Shown in pieces: positions 13,150-58,479 of a DNA stretch of 64,000 nt (positions are counted from its first letter, which is position 1; every line of letters starts with the position of its first letter). Made by a program: the position numbers and the translations under genes. Source of the stretch: Callorhinchus milii (Eukaryota); NCBI RefSeq assembly GCF_018977255.1, contig NW_024704746.1, positions 21,576,001 to 21,640,000 of the forward strand, written 5' to 3'. The notes under the pieces are model-generated. The model worked only from the letters and a program-made list of their open reading frames with translations. It searched no databases and was not told the origin of the DNA.

Positions 13150-13445
13150 TGCGTTTTCACCCACAAAACACACAGTCACTACACTTTACAGTGTATCCTG
13201 CGAACCGTTTTGAGACGTCTTGATGACGTGATAAGGCTCTGTATCAAATGCAAGGATTATTATTATTACTTTCAGATAATAATCTACGACTGTTTGTGGG
13301 GACGCCGCTGTGCGCAATTGGCTGCTGGGTTTCGCCCCCAAAATATACAGTCAATTCACTTTACAGTATATTCCATGAAGCGCTTTAAGATGTCTCGAAG
13401 ATGTGATAAGGCGCTATAGCAAATGCAAGGATTATTATTATTACT
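13150..13445 (+). mobile_element. Two tandem 5'-truncated SINE copies
   Basis: Two successive tails ending ATCAAATGCAAGGATTATTATT or a close variant. Confidence 0.8.
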
Positions 13446-28379: not shown

Positions 28380-33571
<5,192 letters not shown>

Positions 33572-33597
33572 ACATGTTTGCAAGAAAATGAGATCTT

Positions 33598-33603
33598 AAT
33601 AAA
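33598..33603 (+). terminator. RPS8 polyadenylation signal
   Basis: AATAAA 27 nt after the stop codon, followed by a T/GT-rich tract. Confidence 0.8.
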
Positions 33604-33823
33604 CCCATTTTTCACCCAATTTTGTCTGGTTCTTTTCTGAAGGACAGAAAGGTATACTGTGTATGTTTTGCCTACTCCCAACATACAATCAACAAAATAT
33701 TTTTTCAGAAACTAAGCTTTAACCCTATTATTACATTGACTTTTTCTAATACTGTGTGGGTAATCATTCTAAAATACTGATGAAGAATTCTGTTCTTAGA
33801 TGTGGCAAATATTGTAGCTGATA

Positions 33824-33954
33824 TGCACAACTAAGTGACTTGATAGCCTACTTGTGGCCTTGAGGTTTCATTCTTGTGCAAGATTAAACTTCAGTTTGCA
33901 GATGGGATGAGCTTTAACCTGTGGCTTGCTCCCTTTCGAAGGCTGGGGATAATT
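33824..33954 (+). ncRNA. Box H/ACA snoRNA-like RNA, copy A (3' box ATA), downstream of the RPS8 polyA signal
   Basis: Hairpin 1 closed by TGCACAA/TTGTGCA, H box AGATTA 33881-33886, hairpin 2 (CTTCAGTT/GGCTGGGG; GGGATGAGC/GCTTGCTCCC), ATA at 33949-33951, 131 nt long. Paralog at 39461-39590. Confidence 0.6.
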
Positions 33955-35239
33955 GTTCCCTCTTGTGGGAAATGAGCAAAACACATTTTTCAAAAAGGTT
34001 ACATGTTGTCAAAGCTACCTGCGCTCACAGCTTGCGCTTTAGAAGTCCAGAAATGAGATTAGAGATCAACATTTAATTTACATTAAAGTGCAAAAAACAC
34101 AATACTACAAAATAGGAAAGGTATAAGTAAGCATTGTTGATTAATTAGCCCCAATTCTGACCACTTATTTTACATACTGTCCAACAATCTTGACCAGTTC
34201 AGTTTACAGGAAAGACTGATTTGTTGGGAGTTTGTAAATTACAACTTCTGAGCTGTTGTGTAGGTCACTCAATTGTGACCAGAATACATACTCCCAAGAG
34301 TAACTAATGATCTCACTGGTTGCTGACTTCCAACTCGCTGAGCCTGTGTAGGACGCTTTGTGTTTGACCCTCGAGTCCATCTGCTAACATGCAGTTGAAA
34401 CCCTTCAACAACAACAAGATTACAACATTACAAACCCTTATCTACAATCGCCTCTGCATTTGATTTTTCTAATTCCCTGCTCGTTGGTCTATACAGCGCT
34501 ACCCTCCACGAATTAGAATGCTGCTTGCCCTTATCCCACATAAAACTCCATGGGTGCATCCTTGGCTCGCTATCGACCGGCAGATTGTTTTAGGACCTTA
34601 ACTCTTAGCTTTAAATGCCCTTTGCCTACAAGTAAAATACTGTGAAGCACATTGAGATGTCTATGTGGCAAGGTGCTTGTTGCTCCCAACCTCTGCCCTG
34701 CCTGTTTCCTCCCTCTGCCTGGCACGCTCTGGCCTGCCCATCCCACCATAGTCAGTGCAGCTTCAATGAACTATATTCACACAAACTAAGCATTGGGTTG
34801 TCCCCTGCAGAATATTCAAGGTGGCCTCAAATTAGACCGATACACTACAGAGTTTAGTGAATCATTCTGCAATGAGCCCAAATCCCTTATGATTGTAACA
34901 ACACAATTTTATTACTGCTTTGTGTGCCAACTACCGACACAAGAATTCTTAACAACTAATCTTGTAAGAGAATCTGTCCGTGAAGTCTTAATGTTCATCT
35001 TAAAAAAAATCATGAATGCATTGTATGAAATATTATTTACATTTTTTTTAACAGCAAACCATTAAGTTCAGTTCCACCCCTTCCAAGTACGTTGCCACAT
35101 TTGAGTTAGGATTTATAAGAAATAAAAGTTGCTGATCGTACACCTGAAACATTTGTGTAATTGCGCTTTGAAAATGTGCTGTAAGCTATTTGTATTTTGC
35201 TTTTGATTGGGCTAAAAATAAACTTTATTTTAATATTCC

Positions 35240-36197: not shown

Positions 36198-36271
36198 CAC
36201 GTGGTGGAGGGTGGTGACGTGGCTTCCGCCAGGGTATAAAGGGGGCCTCGCGGCGCCTCCCCGGTCTCTCC
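36198..36271 (+). promoter_or_regulatory. CpG-island promoter of the putative snoRNA host gene
   Basis: E-box CACGTG 36198-36203, TGACGT, ETS-like CTTCCG, TATAAA 36235-36240 and pyrimidine initiator TCTCTCC 36265-36271 30 nt downstream. A strong donor GAG|GTAAGA follows at 36358/36359, with YY1-type AAGATGGCG motifs in intron 1. Confidence 0.75.
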
Positions 36272-36854
36272 GGCCGCCGCTCGCGCTCCGGGACGGGGGT
36301 GTCCCGCGGTTCCCTCAGCGACGACACCGCGGAGGGAAAAATCCAGCCCGAGGCCGAGGTAAGAACTTCTCGGAGCTTCCCGCCAGGGATTGGACCCCCT
36401 AAACAGTCGAGCCCTCCTCGCTCCGCTGGAGAGGCCGAGGCTGGGGCCGGGCCTGGGCCGCACGGGGTCGGCGGGGGGTGGGGTGTAAGATGGCGCCGGG
36501 GCCTTCCTTCCCGCTCGAGCCTGAGGCCCCGGGAGGGGGGGGGGGCGCTCCCCAAGCGGCTGTTCCGCCCTTCATCAGTGATGCAGCAAAGTGCAGCGAT
36601 GCAAAAAGATGGCGAGACCTCTTGAGCCGACACCGTGAGGGAGGGCTTTGCCTTCGGCTGAGCGCTCGCGGACTCGCTGCTGACTCGGGCGGGCGGGGGC
36701 GGGGGTCAGGGTTAGGGTTAGGGGGGGAGACGAGGACGACGGTCATTGTAACACCGCCTTCTGTGGGGTTTTGTAGGGACAAAAGAGGAGGCTCGAGAGA
36801 AGCTTCTCCCCGAGAGTGGGCGGCGGGAGGCGGGGGGGGGGGTGGGGGGGAGTT

Positions 36855-37100
36855 ATCTGAGGAAGACTCGCAAAAAGACCCTAAAATCCCACACGTCGAG
36901 TCTTTTTGTTTGACTTTCTGAGGATTTGCATCGCTTCAGTGGGAAGATCCCGATGAGGTGCACAGCGCATGTGTTTTGGGTGCAGCCTCTCGTTCTTGGG
37001 CAGTCTGTTCTTTGCAGGTCCAGGAATATATTTTTTTTCTTCCTTGTAAAATACTTTTTCAGGCAGCAAACTCGAACTTGGGTCGTCCGCGTAGCCCTAC
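36855..37100 (+). pseudogene. Copy of RPS8 intron 3 end and exon 4 start with a 5'-truncated SNORD38 remnant
   Basis: ATCTGAGGAAGACTCGCAAAAAGACC...ATACTTTTTCAG|GCAGCA aligns to 30682-30900 and 40604-40820. Only the D box and 3' stem of SNORD38 remain. Confidence 0.75.
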
Positions 37101-37689
37101 GTCTTGAAGCTAATTTTCATCGCTTCCTGGTGATCGAGGAGGATGGATGGCTGCGAAACCTTCACCTATTTTGTCCAGGAAGAAGTGCTGTGCTGCAGGA
37201 CTGTGGGCGGCATGAGTTCAGACATCACGCCTCCATGCCAAGCTATGGGGTACACATGCATACTTTGTCCGGGGGGGAGTTACAGAAGAACGTACTTATT
37301 GTTGTTGGGGCAATTGATTAATTCTCATAATTATTAATTGGGTTAAGGAAGAGCGGAGCTGCTTCAAAGGCATTCTGATCTGACTTTTAGGGGCCAGTCT
37401 TTTCTCCTCTTGGGCTGCCACGTGTTGGATGCCCGTGGGGACAGATTGTAAACTAGACAGTTGCTACTTGTTTTGGAGGATTGCCTTGTGTGCACATTTG
37501 AATCCAAAGCCGTTAGGAAAGTGATAAATTGTGAGTAATTACAATTATTTTACATAGGCTGCCATATAAAATGCTGTTAAATAGTTGAAAACTGTATAAC
37601 ATGAGGAGGGATGATGGTGCAAAATGAAGCACCCTCTCACCATTTAAGTTGAATAAGCTGAATCATGTACATTGCATCTTTAATTGATC

Positions 37690-38007
37690 AGATAATAATC
37701 CTTGCATTTGATATAGCGCTTTTCTAGTCTTCTAGACGTCCCAAAGCGCTTCACAGAACACACTGTAAAGTGAATTGACTGTATATTTGTGGGCGAACGC
37801 GGCAGCCAATTGCGCACAGCAATGTCCCACAAACAGTCATAGATTGAAAATGACCAATTTATTATTTTTTGTTTTTTTGGAGGGATTATTATTAGGCTCT
37901 GTGTGGAGTAAGGAAACTTGCCCAAGGTTTCGCCCTTTGCCTGTAATTGAACTCGGGTCTCTCGCTTGCAAAGTGAGTGCTCTAACCACTGAGCTACAGG
38001 ACTCCAC
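37690..38007 (-). mobile_element. Full-length tRNA-derived SINE
   Basis: Reverse-complement head, core and tail of the family. Confidence 0.85.
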
Positions 38008-38284
38008 AATCTCAGAAAATGCAAAAAAGTGTTTTAAACGCCTCAATGGAGTAAATTTTAAATTTGCAACGTGCAAAGACTTGAAAGTTGGATTGTAGTT
38101 ATTTGAAACATAAAGTAGGTTACCAACTCTTGGTTCTGGATAGTACCCTGATTGTATGTGACATTCATGGGTGGGGGTGACTTCTTGGGAGCATTTTTCA
38201 CTGTTGGGCACTTGTGAGATGTCCTCCCAATGTAAAAGCCTCAGTATAAATGTTGGCTGTGTTGTACGGTTACAGATCAGCAAG

Positions 38285-38359
38285 TGTGAATGATGAACCT
38301 TAATTGCTGTGAAACTCTGAACTTACCGTGTGGAGAGTTATCTTGGAGAGCTGAACACT
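38285..38359 (+). ncRNA. SNORD55: SNORD55 copy 2
   Basis: C box 38290-38296, D box 38351-38354, 11-bp terminal stem, guide TATCTTGGAGAG intact, 71 nt upstream of an AG acceptor. Confidence 0.88.
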
Positions 38360-38699
38360 TGCTGACTATGTTCATTGTCTAATTTTCATTTTAGGATTGC
38401 ATTTTAATTTTGTGACTTATTGCAGGTGTTTCTGGGACAATTGGCACGAATGCCACAGGACTTGAGGCAAAAGGAAACCATTCCACAAACAGAGAAATCT
38501 TGAACCTGATCGTTGTTGGCTGCATGTGTATGGTAATTATTAGGTTATCAAAGAGCAGATCTGTTGTATTGCTTGTTTAGATACAGCACTGAATACATCA
38601 AGAGCACTTGTTACTGTGAAAGTCTATAGTATGTTTAATAATGGATTTGAAAGGTGCTGTAAAATGTAAATTGTGTTTGTATGGTTACAAATCAGCAAG

Positions 38700-38773
38700 T
38701 GTGAATGATGAACCCCAACTGCTGTGAAACTCTGAACTAAGCTGTGGAGAGCTATCTTGGAGAGCTGAACACT
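38700..38773 (+). ncRNA. SNORD55: SNORD55 copy 3
   Basis: C box 38705-38711, D box 38765-38768, stem TCAGCAAGTGT/ACACTTGCTGA, guide intact, 73 nt upstream of an AG acceptor. Confidence 0.88.
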
Positions 38774-39460
38774 TGCTGACTTTATGTTCATTGTCTAATT
38801 TTCAATTTAGGATTGCATTTTAACTTTGTGACTTATTGCAGGTGTGTCTGGGACAGTTGGCACAAATGCCTCAGGATTGGAGAAAAAGAAAACCATACCA
38901 GAGAAATTATGAACTTAACTGTCGTTGGCCACATGTGTATGGTAATTATTAAGTTTTCCAAGAGCAAATCTGTGTTATATTGCTTGTATAGAGCTCTGAA
39001 TATATCGATAGTATGTTTAGTGATGGATTTGAAATATTGCATCTGCAATTTGGGCCACTTCTAGATCAGCCCACTTCTTGAGACCATTCTAGCAGGGAAA
39101 GCTCCGTGGTTGTGAACAAAGATGGTGCCCTTAAACCAAATAGTTCAACTGCCCCTTAGTCAGGTTAGTTGCTTTTTGAGCTATCTGCAGTTCAATAGTT
39201 TGTTTCTGGATCCCTTTGTGCATTCATGAATGTACTCTAATGTGATTAGGACAACTCTATACATACGCAACAGGATACACTATAAAAGAATGCAACATTT
39301 TTTGTTGAGAATTTAGCAAACACTCTTTGTCGGGTTAAATGGTGATTGAAATATGCAATGGCTGTTATGTGTTGCTTTCTGGAGATATTCGTGGCTTTCA
39401 TTTCATTTCAAAGTTCCATTTTGGAATTATTATTTTTTTTAGCAAATATGGTAACTCGTG

Positions 39461-39590
39461 TGCACAACTAAGTGACTTGTTGGCCAACTTGAGGTCTTGA
39501 AGTTTCATTCTTGTGCAAGATTAAACTCCAGCTTGCAGAAGGGCTGAGCTTTAACCCATGGCTTCTCCCTTTCGAAGGTTGGGGACAAAT
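39461..39590 (+). ncRNA. Box H/ACA snoRNA, copy B (canonical ACA), family not recognised
   Basis: Hairpin-H box (AGATTA 39518-39523)-hairpin-ACA (39585-39587) plus 3 nt, 130 nt long. Both internal pockets start 14 nt upstream of their box. Confidence 0.75.
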
Positions 39591-40240
39591 TTATCCTGTT
39601 GAGGGAAGCTAGCAAACAAAATAATTTTTCAAACGATTGGATGTTGTGAAACCTACCCTTAGTTAGCACTTTAGAGGGGCCCTGAAACTGAATTTGAGAT
39701 CAATGTTTAATTTACATTATAAAGTAAAATACAACAAAACGAAGACACAATTAAGCAATGTTGACTAATTAGCCCCAATTCTGAGGCTTCTTATTTTGCA
39801 CAGTGTACAATAATCTGTTAACAAGTTCAGTTTACAGGAAAGAGGCTTTGTTTTGTCAGGAGTTTGTAAATTGCAGGTTCTGAGCTGTTGTGTACTTGAT
39901 CCTCTTATGTGCCTGTTATTGATCCGCTGGAAAAGTCCATTGTAAGTTTAGTGATGGATTTGAAATTTTGTATCTGCAGATTGGGCCACACTGTCCATGA
40001 TGGTAATAAGAAATACTGAGGACTGCGATTGGATTCTGGAAATGTTTTTTGCGGCTTTTGAGTGTAAGTTTTTTGTTTGTTTGCTGTGGTTGCAGTTATT
40101 TCGGTGGGAATTAGTGCTAGGAACCCTCCAGACACCTTGGCCAAATGGCCATTTAGAAATTTGAGTTAGGCGGGCCCAGTGCTTTGATTTTTAGGACTGT
40201 CAAAGCCTATGCGTGACAGCAACCACTTGGCTTGCCCCAG

Positions 40241-40400
40241 ATAATAATAATCCTTGCATTTGATATAGAGCTTTTCACATCTTTTAAACTTCTCAAAGCG
40301 CTTCACAGAAAATACTGTAAAGTGAATTGACTATATTTGTGGGTGAAACGCGGCAGCCAATTGCTCACAGCAATGTCCCACAAACAGTCATGGATTGAAT
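40241..40400 (-). mobile_element. SINE 3' half
   Basis: ATAATAATAATCCTTGCATTTGATATAG...GCAGCCAATTG. Confidence 0.8.
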
Positions 40401-40544
40401 TTAAAGTTTATTTTTTTTATAATTTAATTTCTTAATGTTTAATGAGTAGAGTGCTTGGGTGTTAATTGCCAAATGGATGTCTGACAATCTTGTAGCTTCC
40501 TGTTGCATCATTTGAATCAGGCATTATCTTAAATATTTTGAGTC

Positions 40545-40614
40545 TTCTAATGATGATAACTTTGTCCAGTTCTGCTACTGAAGTTTAAGCGATGATACTA
40601 GTGATCTGAGGAAG
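40545..40614 (+). ncRNA. SNORD38: SNORD38 copy 2
   Basis: C box 40550-40556, D box 40606-40609. Identical to the RPS8 intron 3 copy. Confidence 0.92.
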
Positions 40615-41171
40615 ACTTGCAAAAAACCTGAAATCTTAAGTGAAGTCTTTTTGGTTGCATTTCTGAAGATTTGCATTGCTTCAGTGAGAAGATCCAAATT
40701 AGATGAATAAAATGTGTTTTTTTGGTTCTTGGGAAGCTGGTCTTTTGCGGATGCAGGACTAATTATAAAAAATACTTTTTCAGGCAGCAAACACGAACTA
40801 GGATCATCAATGTAGGCTTCAGCCTTACAGCTAATTTTCATCGCTTCCTGATGTTCAATGAGGATAGATGTCTGGCACCCTGTCTTATTTTGTCCAGGAA
40901 GAAGTGGTGCATGACTGAGGATAGCACGAGTTCAGACATAAAGCCGCCAAGCTGTGGGGGTACGCGTGCCTTCTTTCGCCCAGGTGGGGATTCTAGTCAT
41001 AGACGACTTAATTGGGTGTAAGGAAGCAGGATTGTTAAGCCTACACCATTAAAGTGGCAATTTCTGAGGTTTTAACTAAATGTAAAATAAAACTTAATAA
41101 TATTGCAGTTCTGCGTGATTAGTGGCATCCAACATATTAAATTAATTTCTGGAAGTTTTATTGTGTGGCAA

Positions 41172-41275
41172 TATGGATGATGAACACCCGACTTTGATAT
41201 AGGTGGGTTACTTTTGACCGTTTTGGTCTTATTTAAACCCACCAATGCTGCTTTGTCATAGTTACACTGACTATT
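41172..41275 (+). ncRNA. SNORD46: Box C/D snoRNA SNORD46 (U46/U40)
   Basis: C box ATGATGA 41177-41183, guide TTGTCATAGTTACA plus CTGA 41267-41270 (U46 signature, antisense to 28S GUAACUAUGAC), long internal hairpin GGTGGGTT/AACCCACC, flanking stem GGCAATA/TATTGCC. Confidence 0.9.
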
Positions 41276-41693
41276 GCCTGAGCAATTCATTTTACTACCA
41301 GAAAAAGAATAGTATTTATATAGTCTATATTCCTGCTTGTTTCTAAAAGCTGTTTTCATCACTGATAGCTTCCAATCCTTTTAGCCAAGTTAGTAAATGT
41401 TTTGCCTGGGGAACTTTATTCATTGCTGTATTTAAATTTTTATTTTAGGTTAATCCACACAGACTAATGAAAGTGAGGCATCTGGAGCCGCTTTGGTACA
41501 AATCAGATGTTGCTATTAAAAGCTATGGTAAGTTTTTTTTTGATCTAAAGAAATTGCATTGTGCCCATTGGGTTTTCTACCAGCATCTCTGCATGTATGG
41601 GAAGGTTAAGATTACTAACAAGTCTGATGTGAACTTGTGGCAGCCATTATATAAATTTCAGATTGATGTACAAAATGAGAGAATCACCTTGTC

Positions 41694-41764
41694 TTCTTGT
41701 GATGAAAATCTTTGTCCAGTTCTGCTACTGAAATTAAAGTGACGATACCGTGGATCTGAGGAAG
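41694..41764 (+). ncRNA. SNORD38: SNORD38 copy 3 (divergent paralog)
   Basis: C box GTGATGA 41699-41705, guide TGTCCAGTTCTGCTA-CTGA, D box 41756-41759, stem TTGTCTTC/GAAGACAA. Confidence 0.92.
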
Positions 41765-43579
41765 ACAATAGGATTGTAAAGTTGATCCTTATTTTTACGA
41801 AAAATAAACTGGCGCCACAGAATTGACCATTGTTTAGTGCTGGTTAGTGAAACGCTGCCTGGAGGTAACTATTGTAAAAGCCTTGTGTTTGATTTGAAAC
41901 AGTTGTTTTTAATTTGGTTTATCACTATGATTTTGCCTGAAGAGCTTTCATGCACTTTTAATCCAGATAGATGTTTAATGGTGAAAATGAGTAAGATTTA
42001 ATTGGATGAATCTTAACTTTTTCATTTACCTTTCATGTCAAAGATTGGACAGTGGTGACAGATGAAAAAAGCTTTGAAGAAAGGAGTTGAAGTTCTGAGA
42101 TCAAGATGTATTGTGGAAAATGTTGATGAAAAGCATTCCACCTTTTGTCTTTGCTATGTGATAGGGAAGTATGTGTGTGAATCTGTTAACACAATGGTTA
42201 TTTCCTTGATTCAAAAATAAAACTATTTTAATCAAAGGTATTGGTGTTTAATCAAATTGGTACAGTTAGCAGAACTTGTCAAACTTAGTTATTTCAGACA
42301 TAAAGCAGATTCCTTCATTGCTGGGAGGAGGAAGGATGTATGTACACCCTACACTGGCAGGTTTAGCCGGCAGGCGAGTACTAACTTAAGAGTGGCTTAG
42401 CTTTAATTCTTTAAACATTAAAGGATGTTTAAATCTTCATTATAGTGACTGGCAAAGCAACAACTTCAGTATCTTCCTCTGTACATTTGAGCTTCAAGTC
42501 TGAGCAATTTTCAAAAGGACATGGAGTAGAGCTAGTACTGTTTTGATCCTCCTGCTATTAGTAACTCATTGGGAGTGATCAAATCTGGAGTTGTGTACTA
42601 AATTGACACGAGTTGAGCAGGGGTGTGTGCATCTTGGGTCCGTTTGTGAAGGTTAGTCATCATTCAGCACTGGACTTACAATCATGCTATGATATAATAG
42701 TGAGGACTGGAAACAAAAATATACTTTTTAAACAAATTGAATGCCTCACAGTTTATGTTGGTAAAAGTTCAGAGGCCTCTTGATGTTACTCTCAGAACAC
42801 CTTTTGGACTGGTGGTTCTATTTCGCACACCAGTTACTCCTGTAGCTTCTGAATTAAAACTTTTTAGTGTGAGTATATGCCAAGCCATGCAGCAATTTTT
42901 TAAAAAATATATATATACCCTGGTTGGTTGCTCATATCCAACAAGTGAGTTACTCACAAGCCTACCTTGTAATATTAATGCATTTGATATCGTGCCTTAT
43001 GTCGTTGGGAAATATCAAAATGCTTCACAGGATATACTGTAAAGTGAATTGACTGTTTTTCGGGTGTAATGAGACACTAAGAGCATCAGTCTCGCACACA
43101 ATTATATCAGGTTCCTGTCACAAGTAGAACTCGTCAGCTGAGCTGGGAGCATTTGCTCTGCGAGTATTGTTCCACTCGATCATTGCGGCACAAGTTCGGA
43201 AGCGAGTGCCCATTTGCAGTAATTGCATTTCTACTTTTTTTAAGACGCAACAAACTCATTGAGAGAGAGGTCGGTCGAAATGAACCGACTTTTAACGAAC
43301 CAGAGTCTTCCCACTTGGAAGCGAGAACTCTTAACCGATACGCGACCAGCCTACAATATGAAACTTTTCAAAGGGCTGCGGAGAACAGTTCCAACAAATT
43401 ACATTCGTGTAGCGCCTTTCACATGGGGGACGGGACGTTCACTCCACATCTACGCCGCTGGTGGAAACGTGAGCAAATGCTCTCGCCATTCATTCGTTGA
43501 TTTATTTGTGGCGAGTAAGTGTGGTCCAAAGTGCAAGTTGTCGTCTGAAAGAGTGTCCCTTTAAGGGTCCCCGGGTACC

Positions 43580-43743: not shown

Positions 43744-58479
<14,736 letters not shown>

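Follow-up and report, generated by a model that had tools for sequence, protein, structure and literature searches.

Box H/ACA snoRNAs are released from introns, assemble with dyskerin, NOP10, NHP2 and GAR1, and direct the isomerisation of a uridine held in a pocket of the RNA. One of them, SNORA35, carries an antisense element for position 566 of 18S rRNA, a site that is unmodified in human and mouse and pseudouridylated in four amphibians and a lizard (PMC6984369; this and the other papers are cited from the parts of their text that were available). SNORA35 also targets 18S-350 in all tested species except mammals, which have C there, and in mammals it is well preserved as an orphan (PMC6984369). 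In amphibians and the lizard, pseudouridine has been mapped at both equivalent positions (PMC6984369). A supplementary figure of that paper, used here as machine-parsed PDF text in which columns may be off, gives pseudouridine at the 350-equivalent in chicken, amphibians (frogs and salamanders), lizard, zebrafish and yeast; at the 566-equivalent it gives U in chicken, mouse, human and yeast and C in zebrafish. The link between SNORA35 and its targets in that study is one of modification mapping, and SNORA35 is absent from the table of direct guide assays in the available text. The SNORA35 family, both 18S targets and the loss of activity in mammals are thus already published (PMC6984369).

Further targets have been put forward. 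For human SNORA35, 18S-566 and position 7 of U7 (U7-7) are predicted (PMC4914119), and Snora35b is proposed as the guide of mouse 18S Psi1315 (bioRxiv 10.1101/2024.10.03.616461); the available main text of that study of brain rRNA makes no mention of positions 565, 566 or 567. Mammalian SNORA35 sits in HTR2C and is brain-specific (PMC4696412, PMC5865145). Xenopus tropicalis has a 14-kb cluster in which SNORA35a and SNORA35b, separated by 6.2 kb, occur together with SNORD46, SNORD38 and SNORD55 (PMC6984369 supplement); the available supplement leaves the host gene unnamed and does not contain the name RPS8. Chicken RPS8 hosts U38, U39/U55 and U40/U46, and chicken ACA54 is hosted by NAP1L4 (PMC2653536, in whose available text SNORA35 does not occur). 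Yeast 18S Psi302 is listed under snR49 (PMC5699541).

Here we analysed a 64-kb stretch of Callorhinchus milii DNA (the window), with a focus on an element at 39461-39590. This element is very probably a SNORA35 gene in a spliced intron beside RPS8, with pockets that match the 18S rRNA of its own genome and a predicted role as the guide for U527 and U311. What was seen here is membership of the family, the fold with its two boxes, a spacing of 14 nt, complementarity to the targets, and an intron around the element that is spliced. If the locus follows established H/ACA biology, the host intron would be debranched and trimmed to leave an RNA of about 130 nt, which would bind dyskerin, NOP10, NHP2 and GAR1. 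In pre-18S rRNA, each pocket would then flank a U-N left unpaired, and its U would be isomerised by dyskerin.

Results

The element belongs to the SNORA35 family

A cmscan search with Rfam 15 returned seven matches above cut-off in the 64-kb window, the top one being SNORA35 (RF00566) at 39460-39590. The match is full length (model positions 1-129 of 129) and reaches 80 bits, twice the cut-off of 39. An earlier, sequence-only reading of this DNA had described an unassigned H/ACA RNA; the Rfam result contradicts this and gives the RNA a name, SNORA35 (HBI-36). That reading had itself proposed the cmscan search, naming a strong match to a described SNORA family as the outcome that would remove novelty. 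Such a match was found, and the claim of novelty is therefore refuted. Matches over the element to psi28S-3316 (29.3 bits, cut-off 65) and mir-879 (27.1 bits, cut-off 90) were rejected.

Clan comparison gave SNORA35 as the winner over SNORA54 at 39461-39590. When the genome was searched with RF00566, three matches were obtained, among them two SNORA35 copies that we call copy 1 (66.1 bits) and copy 2 (the element, 80 bits). The family search scored 44 of about 98,000 candidates and the DNA search gave two SNORA35 copies; the genome therefore has at least two copies, and further ones, including one linked to HTR2C, may exist. We rejected the third match, on contig C17, as a SNORA35 copy, as it scores better as SNORA54 and adjoins an exon of a NAP-family gene. 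Its resolution as SNORA54 indicates that the clan comparison separates the two families. The SNORA54 of this genome lies at L009:1501-1631 on that contig, in an intron of the NAP-family gene.

Table 1 Features of the SNORA35 locus in the window.
Feature	Position	Strand	Basis
Intact RPS8: 6 coding exons, 208 aa, poly(A) near 33619	28380..33619	+	PF01201 and PDB eS8 matches; splice joints; poly(A) loose end
SNORD55 within RPS8	29244-29319	+	Rfam
SNORD38 within RPS8	30622-30692	+	Rfam
SNORA35 copy 1, AUA for ACA, pockets and box H identical	33824..33954	+	66.1 bits, RF00566
Apparently non-coding snoRNA host, ends approximate	36235..42500	+	RPS8-like pieces, two splice joints, Rfam
SNORD55 in host (two)	38285-38359, 38700-38773	+	Rfam; 38700 below cut-off
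GT-AG intron of host enclosing copy 2, 1038 nt	38942..39979	+	Contigs of 4/4 runs, 2 studies
SNORA35 (HBI-36) box H/ACA snoRNA, copy 2	39461..39590	+	RF00566 and two-hairpin fold
5' pseudouridylation pocket, faces own 18S U527	strands 39470-39474 and 39504-39510	+	Complementarity
Box H AGATTA	39518..39523	+	14 nt from pocket-1 base
3' pseudouridylation pocket, faces own 18S U311	strands 39535-39539 and 39571-39575	+	Complementarity
Box ACA	39585..39587	+	14 nt from pocket-2 base, 3 nt from 3' end
SNORD38 in host (two)	40544-40614, 41695-41765	+	Rfam
SNORD46-like C/D RNA in host	41169-41276	+	Rfam, 29.8 vs cut-off 40

The sequence-only reading had further supposed a guide that was retained in early-diverging vertebrates and possibly lost in mammals. 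A new, unassigned family with such a history is scarcely credible. The fold and both targets that it rested on are real, but a full-length RF00566 match at twice the cut-off already refutes it, targets and neighbours are as in Xenopus SNORA35, and human and mouse keep SNORA35 in HTR2C. What mammals have lost is only the 18S activity of the RNA (PMC6984369), and the 350 modification is also found in frogs, salamanders, lizard and chicken. From the letters alone, the reading did reach targets that had already been published, and went wrong on 'unassigned' and 'lost in mammals'. The feature is real; its family, its targets and its evolutionary pattern are known.

Copy 2 folds as a box H/ACA RNA

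Folding of the plus strand of 39461-39590 gives two hairpins (-43.7 kcal/mol, z -2.57; an equally good fold was reached by 3 of 200 shuffles), and the minus strand has no notable fold (z +0.75). Copy 2 has the box H/ACA architecture of a hairpin, a hinge (ANANNA), a second hairpin and an ACA tail; the spacing of 14 nt from pocket base to box that had been claimed for both pockets was confirmed and lies within the 14-16 nt expected of such guides. Pairing of pocket 1 with its target requires the opening of G39474-U39504 in the minimum-energy fold. UGAG occupies the margin of the 5' apical loop (39490-39493, +), where copy 1 has UGUG; we take this motif to resemble a CAB box.

Both pockets match the 18S rRNA of the same genome

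We scored 13 matches to 18S rRNA in this genome. Both target motifs are present, and a check for U at the two sites found U527 and U311, with identical sequence in 4 of the 4 loci compared. When positions are counted on the human sequence in the published alignment, U527 corresponds to human U566 and U311 to human C350. Among the 425 U residues of 18S, U527 was the best partner for pocket 1 (7 + 5 bp including one G-U; score 11.5) and U311 the best for pocket 2 (5 + 5 bp; score 10.0), with runner-up 18S sites at 6.0. The scan extended over 18S and the next 9,095 nt of the rDNA; in those 9,095 nt downstream there was no comparable pocket match (best 8.5 versus 11.5 and 6.5 versus 10). When 18S was shuffled 1000 times with dinucleotides preserved, the pocket-1 score was reached by one shuffle, the pocket-2 score by none and both by none, a control that is generous and understates multiple testing because the pocket registers were those of the sequence-only reading.

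These matches bear on whether 18S is the conserved target at all. A conserved function on a non-ribosomal RNA (position 7 of U7 snRNA is predicted for the human 3' pocket), with the 18S matches secondary, would explain why mammals keep SNORA35 without these 18S modifications, and U7-7 does stand beside 18S-566 in the human predictions (PMC4914119). We consider it very unlikely, given that both pockets match the genome's own 18S far above chance and that the modifications track the guide across non-mammals. A search of the genome with RF00066 (U7) gave no match, and its controls were silent too.

Human C at the second site (350) is borne out by the published alignment. The proposal that this site is equivalent to yeast Psi302 (snR49) is supported too: the alignment shows a yeast pseudouridine opposite human 350, snR49 is the guide of Psi302, and we infer that the yeast position aligned to human 350 is number 302. 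The statement that both motifs occur in fish 18S holds for this genome and is too broad as a generalisation, zebrafish being listed with C at the 566-equivalent.

Modification of U527 is less certain than that of U311, because chicken keeps U566 unmodified; as U566 is unmodified in chicken, mouse and human, complementarity alone is no guarantee of pseudouridine at U527. A SNORA35 in which only the 3' pocket works, with U311 modified and U527 not, would resemble chicken, which has pseudouridine at the 350-equivalent and plain U at the 566-equivalent, and would sit well with the zebrafish C at 566 and with the G-U pair that has to open before pocket 1 can act. Pocket 1, however, offers 12 bp (7 + 5) with the canonical distance to its box and is the same in the two copies, and the target context of U527 is U-A, as in Xenopus, where the site is modified, and unlike the human U-C. 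We regard a chicken-like pattern as unlikely and prefer a guide for both uridines.

The two SNORA35 copies differ outside box H and the pockets

The two copies differ by 15 substitutions and one gap. None of the changes falls in box H or in the 22 pocket nucleotides, in agreement with the claim that the pocket strands are invariant. Seven of the 15 substitutions lie at paired positions. It had been proposed that stem differences mostly keep pairing, and five of these seven do so; the other two break their pair, and all changes are one-sided. In copy 1, the upper stem of the 3' hairpin starts with a U-U mismatch at its base, and the tail reads AUA, not ACA, so that a canonical fold 'in two copies' needs correcting for copy 1. 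Mismatches between copies number 15 of 130 in the element versus 88 of 471 in the flanks (Fisher p = 0.065, not significant), and this two-copy comparison alone gives no significant signal of purifying selection on the element.

Copy 1 starts 205 nt past the RPS8 poly(A) site and is covered by low-depth contigs (33586-34935); no intron enclosing it was seen among the 15 of 503 joints listed. Could copy 2 be a silent relic carried in a decayed RPS8 duplicate? It is surrounded by pseudogenised RPS8 pieces, and its excess of conservation over the flanks is not significant. Its boxes and pockets are nevertheless intact, its enclosing intron is spliced, and its Rfam score is the higher one (80 versus 66.1), which makes a relic most improbable. 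Relic status fits copy 1, with its AUA box, two broken pairs and no intron seen, better than copy 2.

A host made largely of decayed RPS8 duplicates encloses copy 2

The intact RPS8 gene (28380-33619) has five GT-AG introns. In its intron 4, a C/D-box-like remnant at 31840-31910 (+) has a 5' end in common with SNORD38 and is probably a decayed copy, because it shows no rRNA complement longer than 9 nt.

Downstream, 36235-42500 consists largely of pieces that are colinear with RPS8 exons and introns at 69-85% identity, and carries stop codons in the exon remnants. Its 5' end was placed from sequence features only (a GC-rich region and TATAAA at 36235-36240). The host holds six snoRNA-like elements. 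Around copy 2, the RPS8 order runs from intron 1 with SNORD55 and exon 2 (twice) to the end of intron 2, then the end of exon 5 and intron 5; there follows the post-poly(A) stretch that holds SNORA35, with the last exon missing, and the series begins anew with intron 2, exon 3 and SNORD38.

Splice joint 38941/39980 spans the copy-2 intron in 4 of 4 runs from two studies; these runs are presumed to be RNA, and the same runs show the RPS8 splice joints. Because this joint encloses copy 2, we place copy 2 inside an intron of a host transcript that is spliced and apparently non-coding. Another joint, from 40063 to 40784, spans a SNORD38 of the host and is among the 15 of 503 joints listed.

Several other features were observed in the window. 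Immediately ahead of a box D, the SNORD46-like RNA at 41169-41276 matches the rDNA unit over 11 nt, and no SNORD46 match is listed by Rfam in the introns of intact RPS8. The SNORD38 copies at 30622-30692 and 40544-40614 (+) are identical over 71 nt in a duplicated block that is 81% identical, reflecting either strong constraint or gene conversion. A kinesin gene from 43746 (+), with PF00225 at 53073-53348, follows the snoRNA host and is presumably KIF2C-like. Short interspersed repeats are abundant (for example, 13281-13443, 31250-31524, 37692-38008 and 40241-40421), the family has a tRNA-like head at 37938-37998, and its abundance accounts for very high read depth in some bins.

Discussion

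The locus provides a further non-mammal with two intact pockets and a U at each of their targets. It bears, too, on where SNORA35 came from. The gene neighbourhood of SNORD38, SNORD46 and SNORD55 is common to this locus and to Xenopus SNORA35a and SNORA35b, and is not that of the mammalian HTR2C position. Because the Xenopus genes lie among RPS8-type snoRNAs, SNORA35 probably had its earlier home in the RPS8 snoRNA cluster; its presence there in two non-mammalian lineages implies that the HTR2C position is likely derived. We found no published statement of the RPS8 cluster as a SNORA35 home in a literature search with thin subscription coverage, which does not establish its absence from print. 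This likely older home is the only novelty of the locus, and a modest one.

These observations can be joined into a tentative history, which we put forward as a speculation that is more likely wrong than right. The RPS8 cluster would be ancestral; a tandem duplicate of RPS8 would have decayed into a non-coding host of the intronic SNORA35, and the copy behind the poly(A) site would be decaying. In mammals, the move to HTR2C, more than lost complementarity, would have removed Psi566 from most cells. If the host switch had this effect, Psi566 should reappear in HTR2C-rich tissue. Psi566 would then be a tissue-specific mark of ribosomes, and a long-standing brain orphan would have a function.

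Among described systems, Xenopus tropicalis SNORA35a and SNORA35b come closest. They share with this locus the family, the pair of 18S targets (U531 and U315 in Xenopus numbering, 566 and 350 in human numbering), the arrangement as two copies about 6 kb apart and the neighbours SNORD38, SNORD46 and SNORD55. They differ by one base upstream of the 350-equivalent target, and here one copy has an AUA box. Human and mouse SNORA35, in HTR2C intron 2, share the Rfam family and the predicted antisense element for 18S-566; unlike the element described here, they are brain-specific orphans with no pseudouridine at 566 and with C at 350, whereas here the host is part of the RPS8 cluster and a U is present at both targets.

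SNORA54 (RF00430, clan CL00034) is related in sequence and fold, the SNORA54 of this genome scoring 50.3 bits against RF00566, but its pockets are different and it lies elsewhere in the genome, within an intron of the NAP-family gene. Yeast snR49 shares a target, as it guides yeast 18S Psi302 and yeast has pseudouridine at the position aligned to human 350. Of the 17 Rfam matches obtained at E up to 1 between 28000 and 44000, none was to snR49, which is at most a functional analogue of the element.

The host, finally, can be set beside UHG/SNHG1 and GAS5, which are non-coding snoRNA host genes. Like these, it is transcribed and spliced, its exons are full of stops and its introns hold conserved snoRNAs. 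Unlike them, it bears visible marks of an origin from the adjacent protein-coding gene RPS8, which was duplicated in tandem before the duplicate decayed, and 36235-42500 is thus a clear example of a snoRNA host gene born from the decayed duplicate of a ribosomal-protein gene.
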